DNA from: a virus
Taxonomy: Duplodnaviria; Heunggongvirae; Uroviricota; Caudoviricetes
IMG/VR virus record: IMGVR_UViG_2563366861_000001
Location: 1-16,051 of that record
Strand: one strand, 5' to 3'
Length of the DNA: 16,051 nucleotides
Under the pieces are notes generated by a model. The model saw only the letters and a program-made list of their open reading frames with translations, was not told the DNA's origin and searched no databases. Shown in pieces: positions 1-15,331 of this stretch. The translations under genes and the position numbers were made by a program. The first letter of the stretch is position 1. Each line of letters begins with the position of its first letter.

Positions 1-187
1 GGGAAAGCTGCACGTAATCAGCAAGCGATATACGCAGCGAATTGAGCGGCATAACCTGAATCTGAGGCAGCACCTGGCACGGCTGGGACGGAAGTCGCTG
101 TCGTTCTCAAAATCGGTGGAGCTGCATGACAAAGTCATCGGGCATTATCTGAACATAAAACACTATCAATAAGTTGGAGTCATTACC
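1..187 (+). mobile_element. IS1: IS1 insertion sequence, 3' portion (window starts inside the element); ends with the IS1 terminal inverted repeat ...CACTATCAATAAGTTGGAGTCATTACC at 161-187
   Basis: Bases 1-187 are the exact reverse complement of 15588-15774; encodes the InsB C-terminus and ends in the canonical IS1 terminal repeat (recognised from memory of IS1). Confidence 0.93.
2..172 (+). CDS. insB: IS1 transposase InsB, C-terminal fragment (5' end outside window)
   Basis: Translation of 2-172 gives [56 protein letters not shown] then TAA at 170-172, the same C-terminus as the 15603-15980 ORF on the minus strand. Confidence 0.9.
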
Positions 188-2266
188 GCCTCTCACGATA
201 TTACCTTTGTTGGTATTGTACAGACCGCTAAAGCGTCCGGTATGGAACGTTTCCCGCTGCCGTATGTGCTGACCAACTGCCATAACTCACTCTGCGCCGT
301 CGGCGGCACTATTAACGGTGATGACCATGTTTTTGGTTTATCGGCGGCCCAGCGTTATGGCGGTATTTTTGTGCCTCCGCATATTGCGGTCATCCATCAA
401 TATATGCGTGAGATGATGGCAGGCGGCGGCAAAATGATCCTCGGGTCAGACAGCCACACCCGTTACGGTGCATTAGGGACAATGGCAGTCGGTGAGGGCG
501 GCGGTGAGTTGGTAAAACAGCTGCTTAATGACACCTGGGATATCGACTATCCGGGCGTGGTTGCGGTGCATCTGACCGGAAAACCTGCGCCGTATGTGGG
601 GCCACAGGATGTGGCGCTGGCTATCATTGGCGCGGTGTTCAAAAACGGTTACGTCAAAAACAAAGTCATGGAGTTCGTTGGACCGGGCGTTAGCGCGCTC
701 TCTACCGATTTCCGTAACAGCGTTGACGTGATGACCACTGAAACGACCTGTTTAAGTTCTGTCTGGCAAACCGATGAAGAAGTCCATAACTGGCTGGCGC
801 TGCACGGTCGCGGCCAGGATTACTGCCAGCTTAACCCTCAACCGATGGCGTACTACGATGGCTGCATCAGCGTTGATTTAAGCGCCATCAAACCAATGAT
901 TGCGCTGCCGTTCCACCCGAGCAACGTGTATGAAATCGACACACTGAACCAGAACCTGACCGACATTCTGCGTGAGATTGAAATTGAGTCCGAACGCGTG
1001 GCGCACGGTAAAGCCAAACTCTCGCTGCTGGATAAAGTGGAAAATGGTCGCCTGAAAGTGCAGCAGGGGATTATCGCGGGCTGTTCTGGCGGTAACTACG
1101 AAAACGTCATCGCGGCGGCGAATGCACTGCGCGGTCAATCCTGTGGCAATGACACCTTCTCGCTGGCAGTTTACCCGTCATCACAGCCGGTGTTTATGGA
1201 TCTCGCCAAAAAAGGTGTGGTAGCAGATTTGATTGGCGCAGGCGCAATCATCAGAACCGCGTTCTGCGGCCCATGCTTTGGCGCGGGCGATACGCCAATC
1301 AACAACGGTTTGAGTATTCGCCACACCACGCGTAACTTCCCGAACCGCGAAGGCTCTAAGCCAGCTAATGGGCAGATGTCAGCGGTGGCGTTGATGGACG
1401 CTCGTTCTATCGCTGCGACTGCGGCAAACGGTGGCTATTTAACCTCTGCCAGCGAACTTGATTGCTGGGACAACGTGCCGGAGTACGCCTTCGATGTAAC
1501 GCCGTATAAAAACCGTGTTTATCAGGGCTTTGTGAAAGGGGCAACTCAGCAACCGCTGATTTACGGGCCGAACATTAAAGACTGGCCGGAATTGGGTGCG
1601 CTGACTGACAATATCGTCCTGAAAGTGTGCTCGAAGATCCTCGACGAAGTGACCACCACCGACGAACTGATTCCTTCCGGTGAAACCTCTTCTTATCGTT
1701 CAAATCCGATTGGTCTGGCGGAGTTTACCCTGTCTCGCCGCGATCCCGGTTATGTTAGCAGAAGTAAAGCGACTGCTGAGCTGGAAAATCAGCGTCTGGC
1801 GGGGAATGTCAGCGAGCTGACAGAGGTGTTTGCGCGCATTAAGCAGATTGCTGGTCAGGAGCATATTGATCCGCTGCAAACTGAAATTGGCAGCATGGTC
1901 TATGCGGTGAAACCAGGCGATGGTTCTGCGCGTGAACAGGCGGCGAGCTGCCAGCGTGTGATTGGCGGTCTGGCGAATATTGCCGAGGAGTACGCGACTA
2001 AACGCTATCGTTCTAACGTCATCAACTGGGGGATGTTACCGCTGCAAATGGCGGAAGTACCAACCTTTGAAGTGGGGGATTACATTTACATCCCTGGCAT
2101 TAAAGCGGCGCTGGATAATCCGGGTACGACGTTTAAAGGTTATGTGATCCATGAAGATGCGCCGGTAACGGAAATTACGCTCTATATGGAAAGTCTGACT
2201 GCTGAAGAGCGCGAGATTATCAAGGCGGGTAGTTTGATTAACTTCAATAAAAACCGTCAGATGTAA
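188..2266 (+). pseudogene. ybhJ: Aconitase-family protein YbhJ, 5'-truncated by the IS1 insertion (frame is open from the IS1 boundary; first ATG at 242)
   Basis: 674-aa ORF 242-2266 with aconitase-family character ([15 protein letters not shown]-like motifs) and recognised as YbhJ; the frame stays open upstream to the TAA at 170-172 inside IS1, so the native N-terminus (about 60 aa by my recollection of a ~753-aa YbhJ) is missing. Confidence 0.8.
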
Positions 2267-2282
2267 AAAGCGCCATGTGAAT

Positions 2283-2390
<108 letters not shown>

Positions 2391-2406
2391 AAATAGTTAA
2401 TTGCTC

Positions 2407-3690
2407 TTACTTCTTCGCCTCTGCAACCACTTTACTACCCACGCCGCGGTTATTGTATTCCCACATGCGGTTGTAGTTAGTGTCATTCAGATTGCGCTGT
2501 ATTTCGTCGTTATCATCTACGCTGCCGGTATTACCCGCAAACGGACGATTAGAGATCACCGCATCGGCCCACGGTTTAGCCGTGTTAAAACCTTCGTTGA
2601 TGGCGCTATCACGGATCACCACCTGACCGTTGGTATTGGCATCAACATCCAGCGAGCGGCCCAGTTGCGCCACACCATCACCGAAAGCATTGAAACGGCT
2701 GTTTACGGCGAGGAAACCGTAGTAAATGTTGGACAGCGTAGCCGGTGCAAACACATACGCTTCTTGCTGAGTACGTGAGTTCACCACGCGGAATTCGGTG
2801 TTATCGAACACCACTGCGCCGCGACCAGAAACGATATCCACATCCCCTTCAATGTAGCTGTTGGTCACCAGCGTACGCGGCTGACGATTTGTTTCCAGAC
2901 GGTTCTGCACACCGCTGTTGGTGACAAAGAAGGTGTTCTGACGACCGAGAATGTTAACGTTGTTAATCTGTACCTGGTCACCATCAGTACGCAGTGCCAC
3001 CGCCGGATGGTTACCTGCATCTACGCTATCGCCCAGCGTGTTTTCGATGGTCAGATTTTGCAGTTGCAGGCCATTGTTTTGTGACCAGAAGACCGCAGAG
3101 CAGAGAACACCGATACTGTCGCTGCGTTTGCTCTGGCAGCTATCGTACATATACCACGCTGGTTTACCTGGCATATATTTGCCGCGCGGGTTGACGTCGT
3201 GACGCCAGTCGGCAGGGCTCATGCCACCATCAAGGGAAAGCCCAATCTTCACATCAATCGGTTTTTCACCTGTACCGTACAGAGTAATTCCACCCGGAGC
3301 GGCAGGGACATATACCGTTCCCTGATACTCACCAGGCATCACGGCAATATACTGGCGCTTGTTGGTACGCTTGATAATTGCCGCATCTACCGCCGCCTGA
3401 ATCGTGGTATGCGTTACACCTTGAGTGCCCGCCGGGCCGACAACAAAGTCAGGTTGCGCAGGCAGGGTAATCGGGGAAGGATTCCACGCTGCAGCACCTG
3501 GTGTCAGGGATGCAAAATAGTGTTGAGCATCGAAATTCTGCGCTTCTTTTGCCGACAGAATCGGGCGAGAAGAGGTACCAGGCGCGGTTTGATCAGAAGG
3601 ACGTTGATCGGGCGGGGTTGAGCTACAGGCGGTCAGCGTCACGCCAAAAGCCAATGCCAGCGCCAGACGGGAAACTGAAAATGTGTTCAC
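2407..3690 (-). CDS. ybhC: YbhC, pectinesterase-family outer-membrane lipoprotein (putative acyl-CoA thioesterase); GTG start
   Basis: 427-aa ORF; N-terminus MNTFSVSRLALALAFGVTLTAC has a signal peptide and lipobox; recognised as E. coli YbhC, the gene immediately gal-proximal to attB-lambda. Confidence 0.9.
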   Translation of the reverse strand: MNTFSVSRLALALAFGVTLTACSSTPPDQRPSDQTAPGTSSRPILSAKEAQNFDAQHYFASLTPGAAAWNPSPITLPAQPDFVVGPAGTQGVTHTTIQAAVDAAIIKRTNKRQYIAVMPGEYQGTVYVPAAPGGITLYGTGEKPIDVKIGLSLDGGMSPADWRHDVNPRGKYMPGKPAWYMYDSCQSKRSDSIGVLCSAVFWSQNNGLQLQNLTIENTLGDSVDAGNHPAVALRTDGDQVQINNVNILGRQNTFFVTNSGVQNRLETNRQPRTLVTNSYIEGDVDIVSGRGAVVFDNTEFRVVNSRTQQEAYVFAPATLSNIYYGFLAVNSRFNAFGDGVAQLGRSLDVDANTNGQVVIRDSAINEGFNTAKPWADAVISNRPFAGNTGSVDDNDEIQRNLNDTNYNRMWEYNNRGVGSKVVAEAKK

Positions 3691-3730
3691 AGGTTGCTCC
3701 GGGCTATGAAATAGAAAAATGAATCCGTTG

Positions 3731-3850
3731 AAGCCTGCTTTTTTATACTAAGTTGGCATTATAAAAAAGCATTGCTTATCAATTTGTTGCAACGAACAGG
3801 TCACTATCAGTCAAAATAAAATCATTATTTGATTTCAATTTTGTCCCACT
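3731..3850. other. attL: attL of a lambda-type prophage: core GCTTTTTTATACTAA at 3737-3751 followed by the phage P' arm (IHF H' site region and Int arm-type sites P'1-P'3, e.g. AGGTCACTAT, CAGTCAAAAT, AAATCATTAT)
   Basis: Exact lambda att core and P' arm sequence (TTATACTAAGTTGGCATTATAAAAAAGCATTGCTTATCAATTTGTTGCAACGAACAGGTCACTATCAGTCAAAATAAAATCATTATTTGATTTCAATTTTGTCCCACTCC); bacterial arm on the ybhC side, phage arm running into int. Confidence 0.93.
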
Positions 3851-4895
3851 CCCTGCCTCTGTCATCACGATACTGTGATGCCATGGTGTCCGACTTATGC
3901 CCGAGAAGATGTTGAGCAAATTTATCGCTTATCTGCTTCTCATAGAGTCTTGCAGACAAACTGCGCAACTCGTGAAAGGTTGGCGGATCCCCTTCGAAGG
4001 AGAGACCTGATGCTTTTCGTGCGCGCATAAAATACCTTGATACTGTGCCGGATGAAAGCGGTTCACGACGAGTAGATGCAATTATGGTTTCTCCGCCAAG
4101 AATCTTTTTGCATTTATCAAGTGTTTCCTTCATTGATATCCCGAGAGCATCAACATGCAATGTTGTTGGGATGGCAATTTTTACGCCTGTTTTGCTTTGC
4201 TCGACATAAAGATATCCATCTACGATATCAGACCACTTCATTTCGCATAAATCACCAACTCGCTGCCCGGTAACAACAGCCAGTTCCATTGCAAGTCTAA
4301 GCCAACATGGTGATGATTCTGCTGCTTGATAAATTTTCAGGTATTCGTCAGCCGTAAGTCTTGATCTCCTTACCTCTGATTTTGCAGCGCGAGTGGCTGC
4401 GACCGGGTTTGTTGTTATATGGCCTTCAGCCATAGCCTCTCGGAATGCATCGCTCAGTGTTGATCTGATTAACTTGGCTGATGCCGCCTTTCCCTCGTCT
4501 ATGTATCCATTGAGCATTGCCGCAATTTCTTTTGTGGTGATGTCTTCAAGTGGAGCATCAGGCAGACCCCTCCTTATTGCTTTAATTTTGCTCATGTAAT
4601 TTATGAGTGTCTTCTGCTTGATTCCTCTGCTGGCCAGGATTTTTTCGTAGCGATCAAGCCATGAATGTAACGTAACGGAATTATCACTGTTGATTCTCGC
4701 TGTCAGAGGCTTGTGTTTGTGTCCTGAAAATAACTCAATGTTGGCCTGTATAGCTTCAGTGATTGCGATTCGCCTGTCTCGGCCTAATCCAAACTCTTTA
4801 CCCGTCCTTGGGTCCCTGTAGCAGTAATATCCATTGTTTCTTATATAAAGGTTAGGGGGTAAATCCCGGCGCTCATGACTTCGCCTTCTTCCCAT
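3825..4895 (-). CDS. int: Lambda-type integrase (tyrosine recombinase Int), apparently full length
   Basis: 356-aa ORF, near-identical to remembered phage lambda Int (MGRRRSHERRDLPPNLYIRNNGYYCYRDPRTGKEFGLGRDRR...REWDKIEIK); 3' end overlaps the P' arm as in lambda. Confidence 0.97.
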   Translation of the reverse strand: MGRRRSHERRDLPPNLYIRNNGYYCYRDPRTGKEFGLGRDRRIAITEAIQANIELFSGHKHKPLTARINSDNSVTLHSWLDRYEKILASRGIKQKTLINYMSKIKAIRRGLPDAPLEDITTKEIAAMLNGYIDEGKAASAKLIRSTLSDAFREAMAEGHITTNPVAATRAAKSEVRRSRLTADEYLKIYQAAESSPCWLRLAMELAVVTGQRVGDLCEMKWSDIVDGYLYVEQSKTGVKIAIPTTLHVDALGISMKETLDKCKKILGGETIIASTRREPLSSGTVSRYFMRARKASGLSFEGDPPTFHELRSLSARLYEKQISDKFAQHLLGHKSDTMASQYRDDRGREWDKIEIK

Positions 4896-5091
4896 TTCTG
4901 ATCCTCTTCAAAAGGCTACCTGTTACTGGTCGATTTAAGTCAACCTTTACCGCTGATTCGTGGAACAGATATTCTCTTCCATCCTTAACCGGAGGAGGGA
5001 ATATCCTGCATTCGCGCACCCATCGACGAACTGTTTCAAGGCTTCTTGGGCGTCGCTGGCGAGCGTTCCACTCCTGAAGTGTCAAGTACAT
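4873..5091 (-). CDS. xis: Lambda-type excisionase Xis; overlaps the int start as in lambda
   Basis: 72-aa ORF MYLTLQEWNARQRRPRSLETVRRWVRECRIFPPPVKDGREYLFHESAVKVDLNRPVTGSLLKRIRNGKKAKS matching remembered lambda Xis. Confidence 0.95.
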   Translation of the reverse strand: MYLTLQEWNARQRRPRSLETVRRWVRECRIFPPPVKDGREYLFHESAVKVDLNRPVTGSLLKRIRNGKKAKS

Positions 5092-5116
5092 CGCAAAGTC
5101 TCCGCAATTACACGCA

Positions 5117-5140
5117 AGAAAAAACCGCCATCAGGCGGCT
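5117..5140 (-). terminator. Candidate intrinsic terminator just after the orf55-like gene (5-bp GC stem plus G-U, 4-nt loop containing the stop codon, then a 6-U tract)
   Basis: Minus strand reads GCCGCC-TGAT-GGCGGT followed by TTTTTT (plus-strand A-run 5119-5124). Confidence 0.35.
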
Positions 5141-5298
5141 TGGTGTTCTTTCAGTTCTTCAATTCGAATATTGGTTATGTCTGCATGTGCTATCTGCGCC
5201 CATATCATCCAGTGGTCATAGCAGTCATTGATGTTCTCTGCTTCGATAACTCTGTTGAATGGTTCTCCATTCCATTCACCTGTGACTCGGAAGTGCAT
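5131..5298 (-). CDS. Small 55-aa protein upstream of xis (lambda orf55-like); below the ORF-track size cutoff
   Basis: Hand translation of the minus strand: MHFRVTGEWNGEPFNRVIEAENINDCYDHWMIWAQIAHADITNIRIEELKEHQAA, stop TGA; position matches the small ORF next to xis in lambda (identity from memory, unverified). Confidence 0.5.
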   Translation of the reverse strand: MHFRVTGEWNGEPFNRVIEAENINDCYDHWMIWAQIAHADITNIRIEELKEHQAA

Positions 5299-5307
5299 TT
5301 ATCATCT

Positions 5308-5336
5308 CCATAAAACAAAACTCGCCGTAGCGAGTT
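5308..5336 (-). terminator. Candidate intrinsic terminator downstream of the 142-aa moron gene
   Basis: Stem AACTCGC / GCGAGTT (5319-5325 / 5330-5336) with loop CGTA; on the minus strand it is followed by the U-rich run TTTTGTTTTA. Confidence 0.45.
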
Positions 5337-5380
5337 CAGATATAATTTCCACCAAAGGCAGTAGTTGCTGATGCTAAGAA

Positions 5381-5809
5381 TTATTCAATATCTATTCCTG
5401 TAATATCTTTTATCTTTTTCCTTGCAAAGCCTTTTGCTAGTGATTTTGAAACACTTATTAGTGTACTAATTCCCTCATCCTTAAAGTTTGTTTTTATAGT
5501 TTGCCAGACCTCCTTTTGACGCAAGTCAGCAATAAAATCATGCCCTCTTGCTGTCAACCTCAGTGGTACTTCGATCCAACTATATCCAACACCTTCCCCT
5601 AACTCGTTGGACATTATATGACCGAACCCAGGTTTTCCATCAACCCTGACTATTAATTCGTAGTCGCATAATAATCGCATATGGAAAATAAAATTTTGGT
5701 CATATCTATTAAAGCCATTATCCTCTAGTTCACTAAGCATCGTGTCAGGGCCATGAGTTTTTTCGAATGCGATAAGTAGATCTTTTAGATATTGCTGGTC
5801 TAATTTCAT
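5381..5809 (-). CDS. Hypothetical 142-aa protein (moron gene in the int-xis-proximal accessory hotspot); function unknown
   Basis: ATG-initiated ORF with a GGAGG Shine-Dalgarno 6 nt upstream, its own downstream terminator, and AT-rich composition distinct from the flanking lambda-type genes; no family recognised. Confidence 0.65.
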   Translation of the reverse strand: MKLDQQYLKDLLIAFEKTHGPDTMLSELEDNGFNRYDQNFIFHMRLLCDYELIVRVDGKPGFGHIMSNELGEGVGYSWIEVPLRLTARGHDFIADLRQKEVWQTIKTNFKDEGISTLISVSKSLAKGFARKKIKDITGIDIE

Positions 5810-6056
5810 TGCCGCCTCCGTGACATGTCACAGAGATTTATATCATTAATTTTGTTTCGTGCCAGCCTTTGGTCACCCAGCATTGTGAGTCACCATTACA
5901 CGGGCATGAATTAACAGGAACTCTCTCGCCGCACTTACCGCAACGTTTTCTGCTGATCGATTTTATACGCCAGCGCACACGTGCATCATCCTGGCGGCTC
6001 AGTAACGCGATGTACTCACCAAACTCGTAAGGCGCATGCCTGAAGCGGCGCGTGGC

Positions 6057-6176
6057 TCAGTTACGATCCAGCATTTCAATTTCCTGAGCATCAAGTACAA
6101 GCTCCAGCTTACGCATACCGGATGATGCTTGCTTGGCTCTCTGATCGACTTTGCGCTCTGCTGATGATTTAGCCAT
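6057..6176 (-). CDS. Hypothetical 39-aa protein (MAKSSAERKVDQRAKQASSGMRKLELVLDAQEIEMLDRN); same frame continues after a single TGA into a 72-codon zinc-ribbon-like segment (5838-6056)
   Basis: ATG at 6174-6176 preceded by an AGGA Shine-Dalgarno; stop TGA at 6057-6059; the downstream frame (…RKRCGKCGERVPVNSCPCNGDSQCW…) stays open to TAA at 5838-5840 with no ATG of its own. Confidence 0.35.
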   Translation of the reverse strand: MAKSSAERKVDQRAKQASSGMRKLELVLDAQEIEMLDRN

Positions 6177-6370
6177 TCTGCTTTTCCTGCATTAGGAGAA
6201 AGACAATCATGGCGGCGCGGATACTTCCGGTATCTTTTTACTCGATATTACCCTTCAATGGCACATACAAGAAGAGAGCCATCAACAGGAGTGAGTGAGG
6301 AATCGACAACCAGCAACGCTTAATTATCTATAGTGTCGTATTTGCTTCATAAAATATGGCGAATAACACA

Positions 6371-6404
6371 AAGCCCGCAGCAGCTCATTGTGCGGGCTTT
6401 TCTT
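6371..6404. terminator. Candidate bidirectional intrinsic terminator between convergent transcription units (9-bp stem AAGCCCGCA / TGCGGGCTT, T-run on the plus side)
   Basis: Perfect inverted repeat at 6371-6379 / 6391-6399 followed by TTTCTT; lies about 70 nt past the stop of the 204-aa minus-strand gene. Confidence 0.5.
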
Positions 6405-6469
6405 ATACATACTTCCTAGAGATAATTCTATGGAGGCATTAAATTAATACTGTCATTGGTAATATCATA

Positions 6470-7084
6470 TTATCTAAAAGTCTTTCCACTTTTAACGTCT
6501 AGGTATATTCTGTTCGACAACGTCATTCCTCCGCAATATGTGAAATAGATGTTTTTCCCCTTATTGCTTGATGCCATCCACCCTCCGATTTCCTTAAAGT
6601 CGCTTTCCGTGCAGACCCCTTCGTTTATTAACTTCCTAGCTGCCGAAGAAAACTCTTTTTTGTATATACGGTAGTCATCAGATCCTTTGATTAAAGTATC
6701 ATCTCCGCTCGCATTTTCAGCAGGATCTGATGGCCTTTCACTGCTAAGATCACTAAGTTTAACCCATTCTGAAAACTTGCCATTGACGATTCCGTTTTTT
6801 CTTGTGCAGGATTTATTACCTTCTTTAATATATTCGCTTTCCCCTCCCACACATGAGGCTGAATATGGCTCAGTTATACGAACCCATTCACCTTTTTTTT
6901 CTAGAAAATCTACGCCTTCCCTGAAAAATAGTTTCCCAGCCACTCCACATTTACTTGAAGGGCAGGTATGTCTTTCCGTTCGATCAACAACAACCCAAAG
7001 TCTTGATTCATTTTTTGCCATTGCCGATGGTATTTGAGATGAGACAATTAACGTAAGCCCTAAAATTAGTATTGATTTTTTCAT
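6470..7084 (-). CDS. Hypothetical secreted, cysteine-rich 204-aa protein (moron); function unknown
   Basis: ATG start with an AAGGA Shine-Dalgarno; N-terminus MKKSILILGLTLIVSSQIPSAMA is a typical Sec signal peptide; 7 Cys in the mature part; low GC; terminator downstream. Confidence 0.65.
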   Translation of the reverse strand: MKKSILILGLTLIVSSQIPSAMAKNESRLWVVVDRTERHTCPSSKCGVAGKLFFREGVDFLEKKGEWVRITEPYSASCVGGESEYIKEGNKSCTRKNGIVNGKFSEWVKLSDLSSERPSDPAENASGDDTLIKGSDDYRIYKKEFSSAARKLINEGVCTESDFKEIGGWMASSNKGKNIYFTYCGGMTLSNRIYLDVKSGKTFR

Positions 7085-7530
7085 TGTAATTTCCTTTTAC
7101 TTTTTACAAAGCGTTTAATCATGGCTGATTATCTTTAAGCGTAGTAACAGCCTTGTGCGAAACATGTTACCAAATCGCCATTTCAGTGTATCCGCAGTTA
7201 GGCTGCCACTTCAAGGATTCCTAATTACATGGTACGTAAGCGTAAAATCCCGTTGGTTGTCGGGTAATAACTCTGATCAAATCTCCCTTGTCTTTTGCTC
7301 TTACGTATGCAGCTCTTGTGTATTCAACCCAGGCCTCCAGTTCAGCAATACGCTTACTTCCATCCGAGATAACACCTTCTACTCACGCTGCTCGTTGAGT
7401 TTTGATTTTTGCTGTCTCCAGCTCAACACGCAGTTTCCTCACCGTTAGCGCAATATCCTCGTTCTCCTGGTCGCGGCGTTTGATGTACTGCTGGTTTCTT
7501 TCCCGTTCATCCAGCAGTGTCAGCACAATC

Positions 7531-7563
7531 GATGGTACGCTGCAGGATAATGTCCGGTGTCAT
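7531..7563 (-). pseudogene. exo: Remnant of lambda exo (first 10 codons MTPDIILQRT only), then unrelated sequence
   Basis: ATG overlaps the bet stop (ATGA) exactly as in lambda; reading diverges from remembered lambda Exo after codon 10 and hits a stop 8 codons later. Confidence 0.6.
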
Positions 7564-8009
7564 GCTGCCACCTTCTGCTCAGTGGCTTTCTGTTTCAGGA
7601 ATCCAAGAGCTTTCACTGCTTCGGCCTGTGTCAGTTCTGACGATGCGCGAATGTCGCGGCGAAATATCTGGGAACAGAGCGGCAATAAGTCGTCATCCCA
7701 TGTTTTGTCCAGGGCAATCAGCAGAGTGTTAATCTCCTGCATGGTTTCATCGTTAACCGGAGTAATGTCGCGTTCCGGCTGACGTTCTGCGGTGTATGCG
7801 GTATTTTCGACAATGCGCTCGGCTTCATCCTTGTCATAGATACCAGCAAATCCGAAGGCCAGACGGGCACACTGAATCATGGCTTTATGCCGTAACATCC
7901 GTTTGGGATGCGACTGCCACGGCCCCGTAATTTCTCTGCCTTCGCGGGTTTTGAATGGTTCGCGGCGGCATTCATCCATCCACTCGGTAACGCAGATCGG
8001 ATGATTACC
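7560..8009 (-). pseudogene. bet: Remnant of lambda bet (Red-beta): C-terminal ~150 codons only, 5' portion deleted
   Basis: Translation NHPICVTEWMDECRREPFKTREGREITGPWQSHPKRMLRHKAMIQCARLAFGFAGIYDKDEAERIVENTAYTAERQPERDITPVNDETMQEINTLLIALDKTWDDDLLPLCSQIFRRDIRASSELTQAEAVKALGFLKQKATEQKVAA matches the remembered C-terminus of lambda Bet; homology stops near 8009. Confidence 0.88.
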
Positions 8010-8165
8010 GGTTCGCTACCAGGGAAGAACGGGAAGGAAAGGTGAGCACGAATCTGATTTTCAAGGAGTGTCGCCAGAGTGCCGCGATGAAGCGGGTGTT
8101 GGCATTTTATCGCGGCAATTTTCAATAGACTATGTACATAAAAATATCATTTTTTTAATACATGT

Positions 8166-8357
8166 CTAATTATTGGACGAAATTGGTTTTTGCTTTGGTT
8201 TAGTTAGCCTAGCAATCAAGCCAGAGGCAATAATGATGATCCAAGCAATTTGATGCAATGCTACTCCAATATAAGAACCTTTATAGATAATAAAGGCATA
8301 GATCGCTAGAAACGAAATAAATATCCATAACGAAAGTTGATAAATTTTGGCGCGCAT
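8166..8357 (-). CDS. Possible small membrane protein (63 aa from ATG at 8357; two predicted transmembrane helices)
   Basis: Hydrophobic ORF MRAKIYQLSLWIFISFLAIYAFIIYKGSYIGVALHQIAWIIIIASGLIARLTKPKQ...; weak ribosome-binding site; the ORF-track start at 8372 is a TTG. Confidence 0.3.
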   Translation of the reverse strand: MRAKIYQLSLWIFISFLAIYAFIIYKGSYIGVALHQIAWIIIIASGLIARLTKPKQKPISSNN

Positions 8358-8613
8358 ATTTAATCCAATCAATCAGAAAGACGAGTAATCATAGAGGTAC
8401 TATCACCCGGGTAACTATTGCTATTATGAACGGATAGGATAGAGGCTTCAATAACATATGCATCAAGTATGATGGAATATGTAGGTGAAAATGACTTGTG
8501 TCAAATTTGTGGAAATGAGTACCATGTTTCTCTGAAATTGATGTCGTTAATGGCTAGTGATAGTGAACTTTTTTACTTTATAATTCCTTTGGTTATAACA
8601 ATAAGGTAAATTT

Positions 8614-9174
8614 ATGAAGAAGATAATATTATTAGCCATGATTATTGGTTCTTTAACAGGTTGCGCTAGTGTGCCACCATTGAATTTTTCAACACCTAAC
8701 GTGGGAGTTAGCCAGAAAAAAATAGATGCTGAAATTAAGTCATTAACGGTATCACTTGCTCGTCCAGATGAGCAGAAAGGGGATATCACTGCTGGTATGG
8801 AGGCTATAACTCCAATTTGGCGTGAATCTTTGCAGGAAGCACTCGACCGAATGACTATTTTTCGTGATAGTTCACCAAATACGGTTAGCTTAAATGTTAA
8901 AGTGTTGGCTCTTGACGTTCCTGCTTTTGGTGTTTCAATGACAACTAAAGCAATTGCAAGGTATGAAATAATCAACCGTGCGAATGGTGATATTATATAT
9001 ACGCAGGATATTGAGTCTACCGGTACTGTTCCAGCCAGTTACGCATTCTACGGTATTGTTCGAGCACGCGAATCTGTTAATCGCGCGGTGCAAAACAACA
9101 TAACGCAGTTCTTGCAAGCATTAGAAAGTGTTGATCTTTCTCGTCCAATGTTTCCTGTTAGGGTAGCTAAATGA
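8614..9174 (+). CDS. Putative lipoprotein, 186 aa (signal peptide plus lipobox LTGC); possibly YajG-like, function unknown
   Basis: MKKIILLAMIIGSLTGCAS… lipoprotein signal; ATG with upstream AAGG; stop overlaps the next gene's start (ATGA); low GC. Confidence 0.7.
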   Translation: MKKIILLAMIIGSLTGCASVPPLNFSTPNVGVSQKKIDAEIKSLTVSLARPDEQKGDITAGMEAITPIWRESLQEALDRMTIFRDSSPNTVSLNVKVLALDVPAFGVSMTTKAIARYEIINRANGDIIYTQDIESTGTVPASYAFYGIVRARESVNRAVQNNITQFLQALESVDLSRPMFPVRVAK

Positions 9175-9623
9175 AGCGATTATTCGTAATTGCTCCACTC
9201 TTAGTGTTGGTTGGATGCGCACAAAATATATCGCCAAATAGTTATTCTGTTGGCTCTGTGGGCATGGTTAATCGAACTATCGCTGGTACAGTTATTAGTG
9301 CTAGGGGGGTTGATATCAGTGGGACTTCCGCGTTAGGCGGGACTGCTGGGGCTGCCGTGGGGGCAACCGCTGGTTCTGCGCTTGGTGGGGGAGTTCGTTC
9401 TAATATCGTTGGTGCCGTTGGTGGTGCAGTCATTGGTGGTATTGCCGGGGCAGCAATCGAATCTTCAGCAACAAAACAAACAGGCATGGAATATGTTGTC
9501 GAAACTGAGAATGGGAATTTAATGACCATTGTTCAAGGCAAAGATCCGTTATTTACTCAAGGAAGTAAGGTCCTTGTTTTATACGGAAACCCTTCTCGCA
9601 TAATAACAGACCCGCGTCACTAA
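9171..9623 (+). CDS. SlyB-like outer-membrane lipoprotein with a glycine-zipper domain, 150 aa
   Basis: Lipobox LLVLVGCA, then the Gly-rich segment GTSALGGTAGAAVGATAGSALGGGVRSNIVGAVGGAVIGGIAGAAIE and a C-terminal region resembling SlyB/Pcp (family assignment from memory). Confidence 0.7.
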   Translation: MKRLFVIAPLLVLVGCAQNISPNSYSVGSVGMVNRTIAGTVISARGVDISGTSALGGTAGAAVGATAGSALGGGVRSNIVGAVGGAVIGGIAGAAIESSATKQTGMEYVVETENGNLMTIVQGKDPLFTQGSKVLVLYGNPSRIITDPRH

Positions 9624-9663
9624 CATACCTTTTGATTTTGTAAAATCAATTCGTAATAATAAA

Positions 9664-9700
9664 GTCATCGGAGCTTGAACAACTCCGGTGACTTCTGCGC
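9664..9700 (+). terminator. Candidate terminator after the lipoprotein operon (10-bp stem GTCATCGGAG / CTCCGGTGAC with one G-U, 9-nt loop, weak T-rich tail)
   Basis: Inverted repeat at 9664-9673 / 9683-9692 followed by TTCTGCGC. Confidence 0.3.
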
Positions 9701-9813
9701 TAAACGGGGACGTTTATGCGCACATACAATCCAAACTCTCTTCTCCCTTCACAGATGCAGAAATGCACCTGCGATTTTTTGCATCCAGCGTCTGACCTCT
9801 GCGGAGGTGAAGC

Positions 9814-10269
9814 GTGAACCTACCACAAGATGGCATCAAACTGCATCGCGGTAACTTCACCGCTATCGGCCAGCAGATCCAGCCTTATCTGGAGGACGGA
9901 AAATGCTTTCGCATGGTGCTTAAACCGTGGCGTGAGAAACGCAGTCTTTCCCAGAATGCACTCAGCCACATGTGGTACAGCGAAATCAGTGAATACCTCA
10001 TCAGCAGGGGGAAATCGTTCGCTACCGCAGCATGGGTAAAAGATGCTCTCAAACACACATACCTCGGTTATGAAACCAAGGACCTGGTTGATGTCGTAAC
10101 CGGCGAAATCACTACTATCCAGTCGTTACGCCATACCTCCGATCTTGATACCGGAGAGATGTATATCTTCCTGTGTAAGGTTGAAGCCTGGGCGGTGAAT
10201 ATTGGCTGCCACCTGACTATTCCGCAGAGCTGCGAGTTCCAGCAGCTCCGCGACAAACAGGAGGCGTAA
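9814..10269 (+). CDS. ybcN: Nin-region protein YbcN-like, 151 aa, GTG start
   Basis: [58 protein letters not shown]… recognised as the DLP12-type YbcN preceding ninE; GGAGG Shine-Dalgarno upstream. Confidence 0.8.
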
Positions 10270-10439
10270 TGGCTACACCGCTTATTCGTGTCATGAACGG
10301 ACACATCTACAGAGTACCAAATCGTCGTAAGCGTAAACCGGAGCTGAAGCCTTCCGAAATACCAACACTGCTCGGATATACCGCCAGCCTGGTTGATAAA
10401 AAATGGTTGCGACTGGCAGCAAGGAGGAGTCATGGCTGA
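10269..10439 (+). CDS. ninE: NinE, 56 aa
   Basis: Hand translation [56 protein letters not shown]; start overlaps the ybcN stop (TAATG); conserved lambdoid nin-region order. Confidence 0.8.
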   Translation: MATPLIRVMNGHIYRVPNRRKRKPELKPSEIPTLLGYTASLVDKKWLRLAARRSHG

Positions 10440-10722
10440 TTTGAGAAAAGCAGCGCGTGGTCGGGAATGCCAGGTAAGAATCCCTGGCGTATGTAATGGC
10501 AACCCTGAAACGTCTGTACTGGCACATATCCGGCTGACTGGATTGTGCGGCACCGGTACGAAACCGCCAGACCTGATTGCCACCATTGCATGTTCTGCCT
10601 GCCACGACGAAATCGACCGCCGCACACATTTTGTCGATGCTGCATATGCAAAAGAATGCGCGCTGGAAGGTATGGCGAGAACACAGGTTATCTGGCTGAA
10701 AGAGGGGGTTATTAAGGCGTGA
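10432..10722 (+). CDS. ybcO: YbcO-like (DUF1364) putative nuclease, 96 aa from the ATG at 10432
   Basis: [64 protein letters not shown]…; AGGAGG Shine-Dalgarno just upstream; overlaps the ninE stop. Confidence 0.85.
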
Positions 10723-11081
10723 ATACCTACAGCATCACATTACCCTGGCCTCCGAGCAATAATCGCTATTACCGCCATAATCGCGGGCGCACACACATCA
10801 GCGCAGAAGGGCAGGCATACCGCGATAACGTCACCCGAATCATTAAAAACGCAATGCTGGATATCGGCCTGGCTATGCCAGTGAAAATCCGTATTGAGTG
10901 CCACATGCCGGATCGCCGTCGCCGTGACCTGGATAATCTGCAAAAAGCCGCTTTTGACGCACTCACCAAAGCAGGTTTCTGGCTGGATGATGCTCAGGTC
11001 GTTGATTACCGCGTTGTGAAGATGCCTGTTACCAAAGGTGGGAGGCTGGAACTGACCATCACCGAAATGGGGAATGAATGA
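10719..11081 (+). CDS. rusA: RusA Holliday-junction resolvase, 120 aa
   Basis: [37 protein letters not shown]…[12 protein letters not shown] matches remembered E. coli RusA almost residue for residue. Confidence 0.93.
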
Positions 11082-11218
11082 TGTTTGAGTTTAATATGGC
11101 AGAACTTCTTCGCCACCGCTGGATGCGCCTGCGCTTATATCGTTTCCCCAGTTCTGTTTTGACCGATTACCGAATACTGAGGAATTACGCCAAAACCCTG
11201 ACAGGAGCAGGAGTATGA
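11078..11218 (+). CDS. ylcG: Small 46-aa protein YlcG-like, between rusA and Q
   Basis: Hand translation [46 protein letters not shown]; overlaps the rusA stop; position matches ylcG of DLP12 (sequence identity from memory, unverified). Confidence 0.55.
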
Positions 11219-11303
11219 AGTCAGAGATAACAATCAACTAATACTGTTTTATTGATTTTTGCTTGTAATTGGCGTTCTGGTCTGATTTTTGTGGAGTAAG
11301 TTG

Positions 11304-11687
11304 ATGCGTGATATTCAGATGGTTCTTGAGCGTTGGGGAGCGTGGGCGGCTAATAATCATGAAGATGTGACCTGGTCGTCCATTGCCGCCGGTTTTAAGG
11401 GATTAATTACTTCAAAAGTAAAATCTCGCCCGCAATGTTGTGACGATGACGCGATGATCATTTGCGGGTGCATGGCCCGTCTGAAAAAGAACAACAGCGA
11501 TTTGCACGATTTATTAGTAGATTATTATGTAGTCGGTATGACATTCATGTCACTGGCAGGTAAGCATTGCTGCTCTGATGGTTATATCGGGAAAAGGTTA
11601 CAGAAGGCTGAGGGTATAATTGAAGGGATGTTAATGGCATTAGATATCCGGTTAGAGATGGATATCGTTGTTAATAACTCTAATTAA
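11304..11687 (+). CDS. Late-gene antiterminator Q (phage 82/DLP12 QuuD-type), 127 aa from the ATG at 11304
   Basis: [60 protein letters not shown]… with Cys-rich zinc-binding motifs; sits after the nin genes and before the lysis cassette. Confidence 0.85.
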
Positions 11688-11702
11688 TATGCCAATTGTT
11701 TA

Positions 11703-11738
11703 CTAAAAATTATTAAAAATGGGGCGTTGAGACGCCCC
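11703..11738 (-). terminator. Candidate intrinsic terminator for the porin gene (stem GGGGCG / CGCCCC, then ATTTTTAATAATTTTT on the minus strand)
   Basis: Inverted repeat 11721-11726 / 11733-11738 with a U-rich run on the minus-strand 3' side. Confidence 0.4.
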
Positions 11739-11826
11739 CAAAAATAAAGGGTAATATATAACAGAAGGTTTATATAGTTAGAAGCAAGGTTGTGCTCCTA
11801 AAGGAAGTGGCTTGAGGGAGCCACTT

Positions 11827-11866
11827 ATATGTTGGGGAGGCAAAGCCTCCCGCAACATATCTTTTA
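11827..11866 (+). terminator. Candidate hairpin terminator downstream of Q (stem ATATGTTGGGGAGGC / GCCTCCCGCAACATAT followed by CTTTT)
   Basis: Long imperfect inverted repeat 11827-11860 followed by a short T-run; lies between convergent Q and the porin gene. Confidence 0.35.
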
Positions 11867-11875
11867 GTAATCAAA

Positions 11876-12958
11876 TTAGAACTGGTAAACCATACCTACA
11901 GCAACGATATCATCGGTAGCAACGCCAGATGCTTTCGTGAAATCGCTCTTATCAATCAGGTTGATTTTGTAATCAACAAAAGTGGACATATTTTTGTTGA
12001 AGTAATAGGTTGCACCTACATCAATATATTCAACCAGGTCCTGATCACCCCACGCACCCAAGTCTTTTCCTTTAGATTGCAGGTAAGCAACGGACGGACG
12101 CAGACCGAAGTCGAACTGATATTGTGCAACTACTTCGAAGTTTTGTGCTTTGTTGGCAATATGGTTATTACCAAAAACAGTCATGTTCTGGGTTTCAGAA
12201 TAGGTGGTAGCCAGATAGATGTTGTTCGCATCATATTTCAGACCAGCTGCCCATACTTCAGCATTTTGACCAGATGCATTCAGGCTGTTGTTACCGTAGA
12301 TAACCTGATTATTAGTGCGGTCAGATTTAGCATAGGTTGCACCTACACCGAATCCTTCATACTCATAAGTAGTGGAGAAACCGAAACCATCACCATTAGC
12401 TTCAGTTACGTCAGTGCGGTCATTTTTACCCTGATACTGAGCAGCAAAGTTCAGACCATCAACCAGACCAAAGAAGTCATTGTTACGATAAGTTGCAACA
12501 CCTGTGGTGCGACCAGTCATGAATACATCTGTTTGGGTCCAGGTATCGCCACCGAATTCTGGCAGAACGTCGGTCCATGCACCAATATCGTATGCTACAC
12601 CGTAGTTACGGCCATAATCGATGGAGCCGTAGTCACCGAATTTCAGGCCAGCGAAGGCAAGACGGGTTTTATCTTTGGAGGAACCTTGAGATTCAGCGCG
12701 GTTGCCTTTGAATTCATATTCCCACTGACCGAAACCAGTCAGTTGATCGTTGATTTGGGTTTCACCTTTGAAGCCAAGACGGGCATAAGTAGTATCACCA
12801 TCATCTGCATCATTAGAGGAGAAGTAGTGCTTAGCATTAACTTTCCCGTACAGATCCAGCTTGTTACTGTCTTTATTATAAATTTCAGCTGCCTGAGCAG
12901 ACATCGCCATCAGTACTGATGCAGCTACAGCAGAAATTGCCACTGTTAATTTTTTCAT
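11876..12958 (-). CDS. nmpC: Phage-borne OmpC-family general porin (NmpC/Lc type), 360-aa precursor, apparently full length; start taken at [11 protein letters not shown]…
   Basis: Signal peptide [23 protein letters not shown], mature N-terminus [17 protein letters not shown]…, C-terminal …VAVGMVYQF with terminal Phe typical of porins; located between Q and the holin as in DLP12 and PA-2. Confidence 0.9.
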
Positions 12959-13384
12959 CGTGAGCCCTTTTTTTGAACTATTATTAAAAAATGATGTCAC
13001 TGCGCGATAAATATTCATCTAATCAATGTGATTATTTCAAGATGTAAGTTTTGGTTTCTCATTTGATTTGTGAAGTAGATCTCTATTTTTATCTGAACTT
13101 TTTCTATCGAATCCTATTCATGGCTCTTGGCTGAATAAAAATAAATCTATTAGCCAATTTATATTAATGGCTGTTATTTATAAGTGCTCTATAATTTGAA
13201 GATTCAATTTAAACCAGCTAAAAATAACGCTGGAAATTATTTGTTGGTTATTTGTTGAGATTTGCTTATGTATTTGTAGTGGTGTTTTCAATACTCGGTA
13301 GCATTCTCGCAAATATCATTTAGTGGTTTACGTACGTAAAAAATTGGTTATGCTGTTAAGAGTGGTTACTTCGTCACACAGCTT

Positions 13385-13416
13385 AAACCCGCCGTCGAGC
13401 GGGTTTTTCCATTTTT
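13385..13416 (+). terminator. Intrinsic terminator upstream of the lysis cassette, candidate tR' (8-bp stem AAACCCGC / GCGGGTTT, loop CGTCGA, then TTTTCCATTTTTT)
   Basis: Perfect inverted repeat 13385-13392 / 13399-13406 followed by a T-rich tract on the plus strand, about 130 nt before the holin start. Confidence 0.55.
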
Positions 13417-13545
13417 TGAGTCTCGATATTAGCTGATAACCCAATACCTGAGTTATTCACTGACTCCGAGTCTGTTAAGTTTCTGCTTTTTTGCGATACG
13501 TTGTATTCCCTCAATTTACACCCGCTTTGTCTGCGAGGTGGGGTT

Positions 13546-13761
13546 ATGAAATCCATGGATAAGTTAACAACGGGTGTCGCCTATGGCACCTCAGCAGGTA
13601 GTGCCGGTTACTGGTTTTTACAGCTGCTCGATAAAGTCACGCCCTCACAGTGGGCAGCAATAGGTGTGCTGGGTAGCCTGGTATTTGGCCTGCTGACGTA
13701 CCTGACAAACCTTTATTTCAAGATTAAAGAAGATAAGCGCAAGGCTGCGAGAGGTGAATAA
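13546..13761 (+). CDS. S: Class II holin/pinholin of the phage 21 S family, 71 aa, with dual-start motif MKSM (antiholin/holin)
   Basis: [71 protein letters not shown], close to remembered S21; Shine-Dalgarno GAGGTGGGG; stop overlaps the endolysin start (TAATG). Confidence 0.9.
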
Positions 13762-14258
13762 TGCCTCCATCATTACGAAAAGCCGTTGCTGCTGCTATTG
13801 GTGGCGGAGCAATTGCTATAGCATCAGTGTTAATTACTGGCCCAAGTGGTAACGATGGTCTGGAAGGTGTCAGCTACGTACCATACAAAGATATCGTTGG
13901 CGTATGGACTGTATGTCACGGACACACCGGAAAAGACATCATGCTCGGTAAAACGTATACCAAAGCAGAATGCAAAGCACTCTTGAATAAAGACCTTGCC
14001 ACTGTCGCCAGACAAATTAACCCGTACATCAAAGTCGATATACCGGAAACAACGCGCGGCGCTCTTTACTCATTCGTTTACAACGTGGGTGCTGGCAATT
14101 TCAGAACATCGACGCTTCTTCGCAAAATAAACCAGGGCGATATCAAAGGCGCATGTGATCAGCTACGTCGCTGGACATATGCTGGCGGTAAGCAATGGAA
14201 AGGTCTCATGACTCGTCGTGAGATTGAGCGTGAAATCTGTTTGTGGGGTCAGCAATGA
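13761..14258 (+). CDS. R: SAR endolysin (phage 21 R-type lysozyme), 165 aa
   Basis: N-terminal Gly/Ala-rich signal-arrest-release helix ([20 protein letters not shown]) followed by the T4-lysozyme-like catalytic region [23 protein letters not shown]. Confidence 0.92.
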
Positions 14259-14716
14259 ACAGAGTAACCGCGATTATCTCCGCTCTGGTTATCTGCATCA
14301 TCGTCTACCTGTCATGGGCTGTTAATCATTACCGTGATAACGCCATTACCTACAAAGCCCAGCGCGACAAAAATGCCAGAGAACTGAAGCTGGCGAACGC
14401 GGCAATTACTGACATGCAGATGCGTCAGCGTGATGTTGCTGCGCTCGATGCAAAATACACGAAGGAGTTAGCTGATGCGAAAGCTGAAAATGATGCTCTG
14501 CGTGATGATGTTGCCGCTGGTCGTCGTCGGTTGCACATCAAAGCAGTCTGTCAGTCAGTGCGTGAAGCCACCACCGCCTCCGGCGTGGATAATGCAGCCT
14601 CCCCCCGACTGGCAGACACCGCTGAACGGGATTATTTCACCCTCAGAGAGAGGCTGATCACTATGCAAAAACAACTGGAAGGAACCCAGAAGTATATTAA
14701 TGAGCAGTGCAGATAG
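14255..14716 (+). CDS. Rz: Rz inner-membrane spanin subunit, 153 aa from the ATG at 14255
   Basis: [68 protein letters not shown]…; N-terminal TM helix then coiled coil; overlaps the R stop (ATGA). Confidence 0.9.
14475..14657 (+). CDS. Rz1: Rz1 outer-membrane lipoprotein spanin subunit, embedded in the +1 frame of Rz
   Basis: [24 protein letters not shown]… lipobox plus proline-rich tract ([15 protein letters not shown]); classic Rz/Rz1 embedded-gene architecture. Confidence 0.85.
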
Positions 14717-14747
14717 AGTTGCCCATATCGATGGGCAACTCATGCAA

Positions 14748-15041
14748 TTATTGTGAGCAATACACACGCGCTTCCAGCGGAGTATAAATGCCTAAAGTAA
14801 TAAAACCGAGCAATCCATTTACGAATGTTTGCTGGGTTTCTGTTTTAACAACATTTTCTGCGCCGCCACAAATTTTGGCTGCATCGACAGTTTTCTTCTG
14901 CCCAATTCCAGAAACGAAGAAATGATGGGTGATGGTTTCCTTTGGTGCTACTGCTGCCGGTTTGTTTTGAACAGTAAACGTCTGTTGAGCACATCCTGTA
15001 ATAAGCAGGGCCAGCGCAGTAGCGAGTAGCATTTTTTTCAT
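14748..15041 (-). CDS. bor: Bor lipoprotein (serum-resistance lysogenic-conversion factor), 97 aa
   Basis: MKKMLLATALALLITGCAQQTFTVQNKPAAVAPKETITHHFFVSGIGQKKTVDAAKICGGAENVVKTETQQTFVNGLLGFITLGIYTPLEARVYCSQ; recognised as lambda Bor / DLP12 BorD. Confidence 0.9.
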   Translation of the reverse strand: MKKMLLATALALLITGCAQQTFTVQNKPAAVAPKETITHHFFVSGIGQKKTVDAAKICGGAENVVKTETQQTFVNGLLGFITLGIYTPLEARVYCSQ

Positions 15042-15331
15042 GGTGTTATTCCCGATGCTTTTTGAAGTTCGCAGAATCGTATGTGTAGAAAATTAAACAA
15101 ACCCTAAACAATGAGTTGAAATTTCATATTGTTAATATTTATTAATGTATGTCAGGTGCGATGAATCGTCATTGTATTCCCGGATTAACTATGTCCACAG
15201 CCCTGACGGGGAACTTCTCTGCGGGAGTGTCCGGGAATAATTAAAAACGATGCACACAGGGTTTAGCGCGTACACGTATTGCATTATGCCAACGCCCCGG
15301 TGCTGACACGGAAGAAACCGGACGTTATGAT

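Follow-up and report, generated by a model that had tools for sequence, protein, structure and literature searches.

What does the small group of genes lying beside the excisionase gene of a lambda-like prophage represent: an autonomous defence cassette, or the remnant of a regulatory module that belongs elsewhere? The DNA concerned is the IMG/VR virus record IMGVR_UViG_2563366861_000001 (Caudoviricetes), positions 1–16,051, hereafter called the window, and the block in question occupies positions 5308–6176, on the minus strand. A first-pass annotation, made from the sequence alone, had described there a three-part ‘moron’ cassette, composed of a 39-amino-acid (aa) open reading frame (ORF) closed by a TGA, a zinc-ribbon-like segment continuing in the same frame, a palindrome, a 142-aa gene and a terminator. 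The coordinates given for all of these elements, and their strand, proved correct. What we make of them is different: the block probably consists of a decayed regulator gene, the cognate site of that regulator and a retained cargo gene of the DUF2513 family. The anatomy and the origin of the module, taken jointly, are held with high confidence.

The 39-aa ORF, the TGA and the zinc-ribbon-like segment are a single 112-codon gene with a nonsense mutation, so that the cassette comprises two genes rather than three parts. On the minus strand, an ATG at 6176 opens 39 codons that end at a TGA (6059–6057), and the frame then runs for 72 codons to a TAA (5840–5838); this second stretch holds C79-x2-C82, C91-x-C93 and C99, a C-terminal cysteine cluster that bears out the zinc-ribbon-like description. 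The ‘good’ Shine–Dalgarno sequence attributed to the 39-aa ORF amounts to an AGGA about 10 nucleotides (nt) upstream. Alignment with the lambda-like phage Chlobot and with the epsilon15-like phages TL-2011b and phiV10 gives TGT at codon 40 and an ORF of 112 codons in all three. The block as a whole shares 97.6% identity with a part of Chlobot, and positions 5845–6234 align at about 90% identity with the gene that comes last among the early genes of TL-2011b (gp20) and phiV10 (gp55). With codon 40 restored to Cys, the protein matches phrog_536 at E 6.7e-49 (residues 1–111 on profile positions 2–114 of 115), a family labelled ‘transcriptional regulator’ that includes epsilon15 gp49 and phiV10 gp55; the TGA at codon 40 interrupts the frame of about 112 codons expected of its members. 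We retrieved 299 homologues, nearly all exactly 112 aa long and devoid of any Pfam domain, and in an alignment of 46 close-family sequences N39, C40, C79, C82, C91 and C93 are invariant. As the change from TGT to TGA falls on a Cys that never varies in the close family, the window copy (5838–6176, minus strand) is a pseudogene of this regulator.

Codon 40 reads TGT in 73, TGC in one and TGA in six of 80 IMG/VR loci, and the exact 60-nt TGA haplotype is found in 28 complete Escherichia coli genomes. The Prokaryotic Genome Annotation Pipeline (PGAP) calls the 100%-identical TGA allele a pseudogene with an ‘internal stop’ in both of the genomes examined (ATCC 8739 and NCTC9040), and calls the TGT allele of strain 81EVA an intact 112-aa protein. 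Among 71 columns conserved at 90% or more, the lambda-borne lineage deviates at eight or nine (for example P45F, G46R and I60S; eight in the window copy), against a median of one and a maximum of five in other family members and none in TL-2011b gp20. These deviations are present in TGA and TGT alleles alike, an indication that constraint on the lambda-borne lineage was relaxed before the stop arose.

What kind of protein did the gene encode? An exhaustive profile search yielded 188 representative clusters at 50% identity, and the family has more than 570 IMG/VR loci; in its deep alignment, R8, R13, E54, L59, C79, C82, P87 and C99 are constant. Its N-terminal half presents, in order, a basic helix (ERKAAQRARQ), a Gly, KLELVLD, AQEIEMLERN, a loop and EYIALLIRQD, a succession that fits a predicted ribbon-helix-helix (RHH) core behind a basic arm. 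The weak matches obtained all concern RHH families, namely NCBIfam YbfE (E 0.041) and, each in one or two of 56 diverse members, RHH_5 (E 0.013), RepB-RCR_reg (E 0.028) and RHH_1 (E 0.071); all are below the family thresholds. The ‘small RHH-like ORF’ was thus well seen as far as the N-terminal part is concerned; however, the predicted core (approximately residues 20–66) spans codon 40, so that the 39-aa product cannot itself be an RHH protein. On the C-terminal side, a profile of the 56 diverse members searched against the Protein Data Bank (PDB) returned two zinc-finger proteins of the DksA/TraR type, YbiI (E 0.057) and TraR (E 0.1), and hhalign placed the zinc segment on a TraR/lambda-orf73 alignment with a probability of 66.5% (P 5e-5, 38 columns). 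These likenesses are suggestive of a resemblance between the predicted cysteine cluster and the TraR zinc domain. No match to PF01258 (the DksA/TraR C4 zinc finger) was found in the 56 members, the fourth Cys is unaligned, and the close-family profile matched no PDB sequence.

Between the two genes lies the palindrome, an inverted repeat GTGAC-AT-GTCAC contained in GTGACATGTCAC and reading as a perfect 12-bp palindrome on both strands (5820–5831), directly followed by a GGAGG (5815–5819, minus strand), which we read as the Shine–Dalgarno sequence of the 142-aa gene. Five perfect 12-bp palindromes occur in the window, against 3.95 ± 2.0 in mononucleotide shuffles, and a search allowing two mismatches returned this copy of the motif alone. 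Such palindromes being no rarer here than expected by chance, any significance of this one must come from its conservation elsewhere. That conservation is sharp: among 22 unique contexts taken from IMG/VR loci downstream of the 112-aa gene, 21 carry a perfect copy in spite of differing flanks, and the core GTGAC-NN-GTCAC is kept in 31 species-representative genome loci, in most of which the TGA of the motif is the stop codon of the gene. The 5-bp arms are invariant, and the central dinucleotide is AT, GT, AC, CT or AG. A Yersinia clade with about 35% protein identity carries GTGACGCGTCAC, and the association persists down to approximately 29% identity; a member that has neither Cys93 nor Pro92 (locus L192) is also devoid of the motif. 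Across 211 loci scanned, the motif was found solely with the 112-aa gene or a 3′ remnant of it, at 0.17 per kb against 0.001 per kb by chance. Six independent deep-family loci (31 kb) contain four copies for 0.03 expected, of which one abuts the ribosome-binding site of terS, one overlaps the start of the family gene itself and one sits at the ancestral stop position.

The placement of additional copies is equally particular. Epsilon15 (L212) has exactly three perfect copies, for 0.04 expected, with coordinates 2142, 19517 and 39612. One of the three follows gp49, another follows gp18, the last structural gene, whose TGA it overlaps, and the remaining one separates the terL terminator from the stop codon of the convergent gp50. 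The same three operon borders are marked in phiV10 (L178; 2262, 19493 and 39101), the copy at 39101 having one mismatch (GTGACATGTTAC), and TL-2011b carries two perfect copies and a degenerate one. In epsilon15 and phiV10, two of the three copies overlap the TGA with which the final gene of an operon stops, and an annotated rho-independent terminator adjoins every copy. More generally, a terminator begins within 60 nt of the motif in 46 of 89 unique contexts, which are phylogenetically related and hence non-independent, compared with 4% of random positions; where a cargo gene is present, the terminator stands 3′ of the cargo, whichever gene fills the slot. Invariant 5-bp arms around a free 2-bp centre fit the binding of a dimer to duplex DNA. 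The TGAC half-site and the E-x2-AA-x2-AR pattern of the N-terminal helix may recall the basic regions of basic leucine zipper proteins.

The palindrome had been called operator-like. It is a real conserved element, but not the dedicated operator of the 142-aa gene, as it travels with the 112-aa family and is present in phages that have no DUF2513 gene. The absence of DUF2513 from epsilon15, phiV10 and TL-2011b likewise means that DUF2513 cannot be the dedicated binder of the motif. Two other identities were tried and rejected: a CRP/FNR-type host site, since the motif has a spacing of N4 and such sites are GTGA-N6-TCAC, and a genome end, since the break of the phiV10 record inside the motif is a cut made by the annotators after the last stop codon. 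A literature search returned the 12-mer in no paper, and the pairing of regulator and motif, with its stop-codon overlap, its operon borders and its reach down to about 29% identity, appears to be undescribed in the searchable literature.

The second gene (5381–5809, minus strand, ATG at 5809) is intact and encodes a 142-aa protein predicted to combine a winged helix with a long C-terminal helix. It matches PF10711 (DUF2513) with 42.9 bits against a cut-off of 29.6 (residues 2–115 on the complete profile, 1–100 of 100) and phrog_585 at E 2e-34; together with the phrog_536 match of the upstream gene, this overturns the statement that no member of the block belongs to a recognizable family. The 113 homologues that we collected are spread across Enterobacterales, each of them either bearing PF10711 or being a fragment, and the window copy has two conservative changes in 41 conserved columns. 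Structure prediction and Foldseek comparison, which had been proposed as a check, yielded a confident AlphaFold2 model (predicted local distance difference test score, pLDDT, 93.5; predicted template modelling score 0.83), in which a winged helix-turn-helix whose wing is long is accompanied by two more helices and by a C-terminal helix of 24 residues. This model is structurally similar to solved PadR/MarR-type winged-helix proteins, and it makes DUF2513 a probable DNA-binding protein, presumably dimeric. The close-family profile matched no PDB sequence, Foldseek searches of viral structures returned only uncharacterised proteins, and the literature search found ‘DUF2513’ named solely in unrelated work. 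DUF2513 genes of this kind are present in three of 50,697 phage records, and the whole block in 137 of 5426 complete E. coli genomes. The description of the block as AT-rich holds for this gene (GC content 0.361) and not for the 112-codon gene (0.496, against 0.462 for the whole window).

Downstream, an intrinsic-terminator-like hairpin of eight pairs with a 4-nt loop, GAACTCGCTACGGCGAGTTT, followed by the T-run TGTTTTATGG, occupies 5337–5318 on the minus strand. The terminator thus supports one half of the ‘moron’ designation. The other half, an own promoter, was not detected: a simple consensus scan of the minus strand from 5000 to 7300, which could miss a real promoter, returned no sigma-70-like site. 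Moron status is therefore unsupported, and transcription of the DUF2513 gene would need read-through from upstream. Were the lambda-like phage functional, the block would be supplied by leftward early transcription from pL, antiterminated by N; the prophage of the window has lost most of its pL leftward early region.

Where, then, does the module come from? It is native to epsilon15-like (Uetakevirus-type) temperate phages and was transplanted beside xis. In Cronobacter epsilon15-like prophages, the order is the 112-aa gene, 28 nt containing the motif, DUF2513, a terminator, terS and terL; in phiV10, TL-2011b and epsilon15, the 112-aa gene stands alone in this place, where it closes the rightward early operon. 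Its start overlaps the end of the upstream gene in epsilon15-like phages. Gene-neighbourhood conservation, another check that had been suggested, is evident: beyond Cronobacter, the pair recurs in diverged lineages with 46–62% identity in the regulator, including the nin regions of lambdoid prophages. More distant DUF2513 genes are often just upstream of terminase or HNH genes, and in Serratia only the last codons of the 112-aa gene precede DUF2513. Regulator relatives at 25–30% identity are found before lysis or terminase genes, or before gemA-mor in Mu-like elements; in two of the latter, members with about 29% identity (L216, 3001–3405; L217, 3001–3390) lie directly upstream of gemA and mor, and in L217 the motif GTGACCGGTCAC is inside the gene, where relatives have their stop codon. 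Other phages have a 70-aa ORF or a remnant after the motif in place of DUF2513. In Citrobacter werkmanii, Pseudocitrobacter faecalis and Kluyvera, a LexA-box-like TACTGT-N8-ACAGTA follows the motif (L181 4336+, L183 4336+ and L189 1108+, respectively), with promoter-like −35/−10 hexamers beside it in L181 and L183, which suggests a putative SOS-controlled cargo.

In lambda-like prophages, the module has decayed by several routes besides the nonsense mutation. The module of NCTC9040 carries an insertion of the insertion sequence (IS) IS1. Independently, a deletion in Escherichia sp. E1V33 (L180, 2510–2836) and three IMG/VR contigs (L038–L040) has removed motif and DUF2513 and brought the 112-aa gene, cut at codon 104, up to the terminator of the 55-aa ORF.

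The late genes of the native phages carry a second repeat as well. In epsilon15 (L212), ATTACC-N5-GGTAAT is found at 12–27, 2931–2947, 19895–19911, 32479–32632 and 35906–35922, preceding the terS, portal and tail-fibre operons and also in the cI/cro region; it is found upstream of terS in L177, L178 and L012 too. The epsilon15 record annotates these repeats as (CI-type) repressor binding sites. Late operons would thus be directly under repressor control, and a dedicated activator may not be needed. Published work on the ‘regulatory protein’ of epsilon15-like phages covers the repressor, the anti-repressor and the integrase, not the 112-aa gene, and our literature search found no experimental work on either the phrog_536 or the DUF2513 family.

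From these elements, a mechanism can be tentatively put forward, as a possibility rather than as the expected outcome. In the native phages, the regulator is the last early gene before the terminase and late genes; a dimer of it would bind the repeat, as DNA, both where its own gene ends and in the few further copies that mark operon borders, beside intrinsic terminators or ribosome-binding sites. Once bound, it may modulate transcription across these borders during the early-to-late switch, through termination, read-through or expression of the next gene, and the zinc domain may contact RNA polymerase. In the window, the regulator is dead and the motif a relic, and DUF2513 is the only product that can still be made. 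A more ambitious proposition, which we regard as doubtful when its parts are taken jointly, is that the 112-aa family and its GTGAC-N2-GTCAC sites form an undescribed system of operon-border control. It would rely on a dimeric binder of basic-helix/RHH type with a TraR-like zinc domain, acting at sites placed between stop codons and terminators or at the ribosome-binding sites of terS and cargo genes; it would switch read-through or termination at the early-to-late transition, possibly touching RNA polymerase, and would thereby gate DUF2513 and any other gene lodged behind the site.

Several points weigh against the explanation that we favour. Binding of the motif by the regulator is deduced solely from their co-occurrence, in contexts whose relatedness was noted above. 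The AlphaFold2 model of the 112-aa protein, built on the 46-sequence alignment, is poor, its pLDDT of 61 (helices 5–18, 30–42 and 52–67) being too low for a fold search, a profile restricted to the N-terminal part of the family matched nothing in the PDB, and the RHH and TraR-like similarities all lie below family thresholds. The relation between motif and terminator is uneven, the terminator of the terL site preceding the motif on the plus strand, and in the window, L042 and L213 the motif abuts a ribosome-binding site instead. A lineage represented by L135, L136 and L142 retains only a remnant of the regulator and still has a perfect motif, so that the integrity of the motif does not strictly track an intact regulator. 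The promoter scan, as a plain consensus search, may also have overlooked a genuine promoter.

The alternatives for the genes themselves begin with the role proposed by the first-pass annotation, an autonomously expressed moron that protects the lysogen by defence or exclusion or counters host defences. Such a role would agree with the accessory region beside int/xis, the AT-richness of DUF2513, its patchy spread among E. coli genomes and phage records, its own terminator and the proximity of one relative to an OLD-like ATPase gene. However, four proteins of the region gave no PADLOC-DB v2 match at E ≤ 0.1, and both proteins of the block have small folds of DNA-binding type without enzymatic or toxin-like domains, which leaves a defence or anti-defence role unsupported. 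One of the two genes is moreover dead in this lineage, no promoter was found on the coding strand, and the native site, inside an early operon before the terminase genes, is a regulatory position and not a lysogen-expressed island; we consider this explanation unlikely. A type II toxin–antitoxin system, in which DUF2513 would be the toxin and the RHH-like gene before it the antitoxin, is very improbable. A small RHH-like gene, a short gap and a second small gene are indeed in the order expected, and the pair recurs across diverged lineages, but the putative antitoxin is dead with DUF2513 annotated as intact in the two TGA-allele carriers examined, and the 112-aa gene occurs alone in most phages, for which reasons this pairing was rejected; the DUF2513 fold is besides of DNA-binding type, not that of a toxin. 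Programmed recoding was weighed because a UGA opposite a Cys is the signature of selenoproteins: here TGA replaces an invariant Cys codon and persists in the 28 complete genomes, and its reading as selenocysteine, or its read-through, would restore the full-length protein. Against this, no selenocysteine insertion sequence (SECIS) or other Rfam match was found near the site (E ≤ 5, positions 5000–6600, aside from two chance-level hits at 6363–6456), no stable structure lies downstream of the UGA (z +0.62), and the TGA, a single base away from TGT, is the minority state, confined to one lineage that is also substituted at conserved positions. The three carriers examined in context (NCTC9040, ATCC 8739 and the window) are defective prophages, and recoding has next to no credibility here.

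As for the palindrome, it might act as RNA, that is as a hairpin or a protein site in a 3′ or 5′ untranslated region controlling downstream translation or 3′-end stability. The motif is always inside a transcript, between stop codon and terminator or directly 5′ of a Shine–Dalgarno sequence, and the N-terminal helix of the regulator is arginine-rich; in the RNA of the window, the motif extends into a 9-bp hairpin, UCUCUGUGA/UCACGGAGG, that pairs with and sequesters the GGAGG. This extension is not conserved in other lineages, though, and without it only a weak stem of 4 bp is left; a 2-nt loop, which is not feasible, would have to be closed by the conserved C and G around the free dinucleotide, and the local fold is no better than that of shuffled sequences (z −0.71). 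A 5 + 5 inverted repeat with a free spacer is, by contrast, the classic sign of a DNA-bound dimer, and an RNA-level role seems to us improbable. Lower still stands the possibility that the palindrome is the autoregulatory operator of DUF2513, whose winged-helix dimer would repress its own gene. The site lies at a fixed 22–24 nt before the ATG, abutting the ribosome-binding site, and PadR/MarR-like folds typically bind palindromes. Two observations run counter to it: the motif is present in two or three copies in epsilon15, phiV10 and TL-2011b, all devoid of DUF2513, and DUF2513 genes without an upstream 112-aa gene or remnant are also without the motif. From general knowledge, half-site centres 7 bp apart are in addition short for two winged-helix recognition helices. 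A decayed regulator accompanied by its site and a retained cargo gene accordingly remains the explanation that we favour.

The surroundings of the block are those of a relic. It occupies the end nearest to int/xis of the leftward early region in a defective lambda-like prophage that resides at attB-lambda, and the window is 99.9% identical to the defective lambda-attachment-site prophages of E. coli NCTC9040/9041, MS 124-1 and related strains; its designation as an accessory, horizontally acquired block in the int/xis-proximal part of a lambdoid prophage is supported. On one side are found ybhC, a lambda-type integrase gene, the excisionase gene (Pfam Exc, E 4e-41) and the 55-aa ORF; on the right, a UmuD-like remnant and a RecT fragment, together with a gene whose 204-aa product has a signal peptide. 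The UmuD-like remnant (6215–6320, minus strand) adjoins the module upstream of the 112-codon gene, and its megablast matches are the UmuD-like genes of phages D6 and PhiR41_1. PGAP labels it a partial pseudogene (‘DNA repair protein, incomplete’), the window reading GGG TAA where Chlobot reads GGG GAA, and the Chlobot record has a 105-aa ‘UmuD-like protein’ overlapping the start of the 112-codon gene. This remnant is an adjacent recombination scar, outside the module. At 7383–7979 (minus strand), an Ea22-like fragment and a 139-aa C-terminal RecT fragment indicate that the prophage has suffered deletions and is defective; in related strains, the same relic carries IS1 or IS5 inserted at differing points (L005, L006 and L179).

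The 204-aa gene (6470–7084, minus strand; GC 0.39) encodes a protein with a signal-peptide/lipoprotein-like N-terminus that matches phrog_8310 at E 4e-136 and, weakly, SH3_3 and LPAM_1; a hairpin and a T-rich tract, read from the sequence, lie 3′ of it at approximately 6380–6413. If an accessory gene expressed in the lysogen is sought, this one is a better candidate than the block at 5308–6176. The two Rfam hits at 6363–6456 (minus strand), Thr_leader (E 0.44) and Esr41 (E 1.3), fall at chance level on the hairpin after this gene and most likely reflect merely a terminator-like stem.

In itself, the window is of little importance: it holds a decaying passenger module in a cryptic prophage, and both families are already catalogued (phrog_536 and DUF2513), the cassette of the window being a decayed member. 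Its analysis corrects an over-reading, an in-frame TGA opposite a conserved Cys being an invitation to ideas of recoding, and it connects a sharply conserved DNA motif with a family of phage genes that is widespread but uncharacterised. Placed at the stop codon of its own gene and at operon borders, this motif offers a testable handle on the organization of the early-to-late switch, and the slot that follows it is a cargo site, occupied by DUF2513, by the 70-aa ORF or by candidate SOS-controlled cargo.

How does the module compare with systems already known? As in the phage morons of lambda (bor, lom) and HK97, DUF2513 is accessory, deviates in base composition, precedes a terminator and fills a variable slot; it differs from them in that no promoter was detected and that its native slot is inside an early operon, downstream of a regulator gene. 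Its product is likened by its predicted fold to the PadR/MarR/HxlR regulators, from which it is set apart by the lack of sequence-level membership (Foldseek E ≥ 0.057) and by a long wing with an insertion. The 112-aa protein shares with RHH regulators (Arc/Mnt/CopG, and the E. coli ‘LexA regulated protein’ YbfE) a basic N-terminal stretch, a strand-helix-helix pattern and a short palindromic candidate site. Unlike them, it has an extra, predicted C-terminal zinc domain, its fold lacks a confident model, and its candidate site is found not at a promoter but at operon borders and where its own gene ends. With the TraR/DksA proteins (F TraR, YbiI and lambda orf73), the likeness is in the C-terminal C-x2-C-G-x2-(L/I)-P...G-x3-C, which aligns with the TraR zinc finger, and lambda orf73 is, like the 112-aa protein, a small phage early protein. 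The differences are that the fourth Cys of the CxxC...CxxC pattern is unaligned in the 112-aa family, which has no PF01258 match, and in which we identified no acidic-tip coiled coil of the kind that inserts into the secondary channel of RNA polymerase. Finally, the late regulators of lambda Q and RinA/ArpU type have neither sequence nor fold similarity to the 112-aa protein and are compared with it by position alone; like them, it is a small, DNA-site-associated protein encoded by the last early gene, directly upstream of the terminase and lysis late genes.

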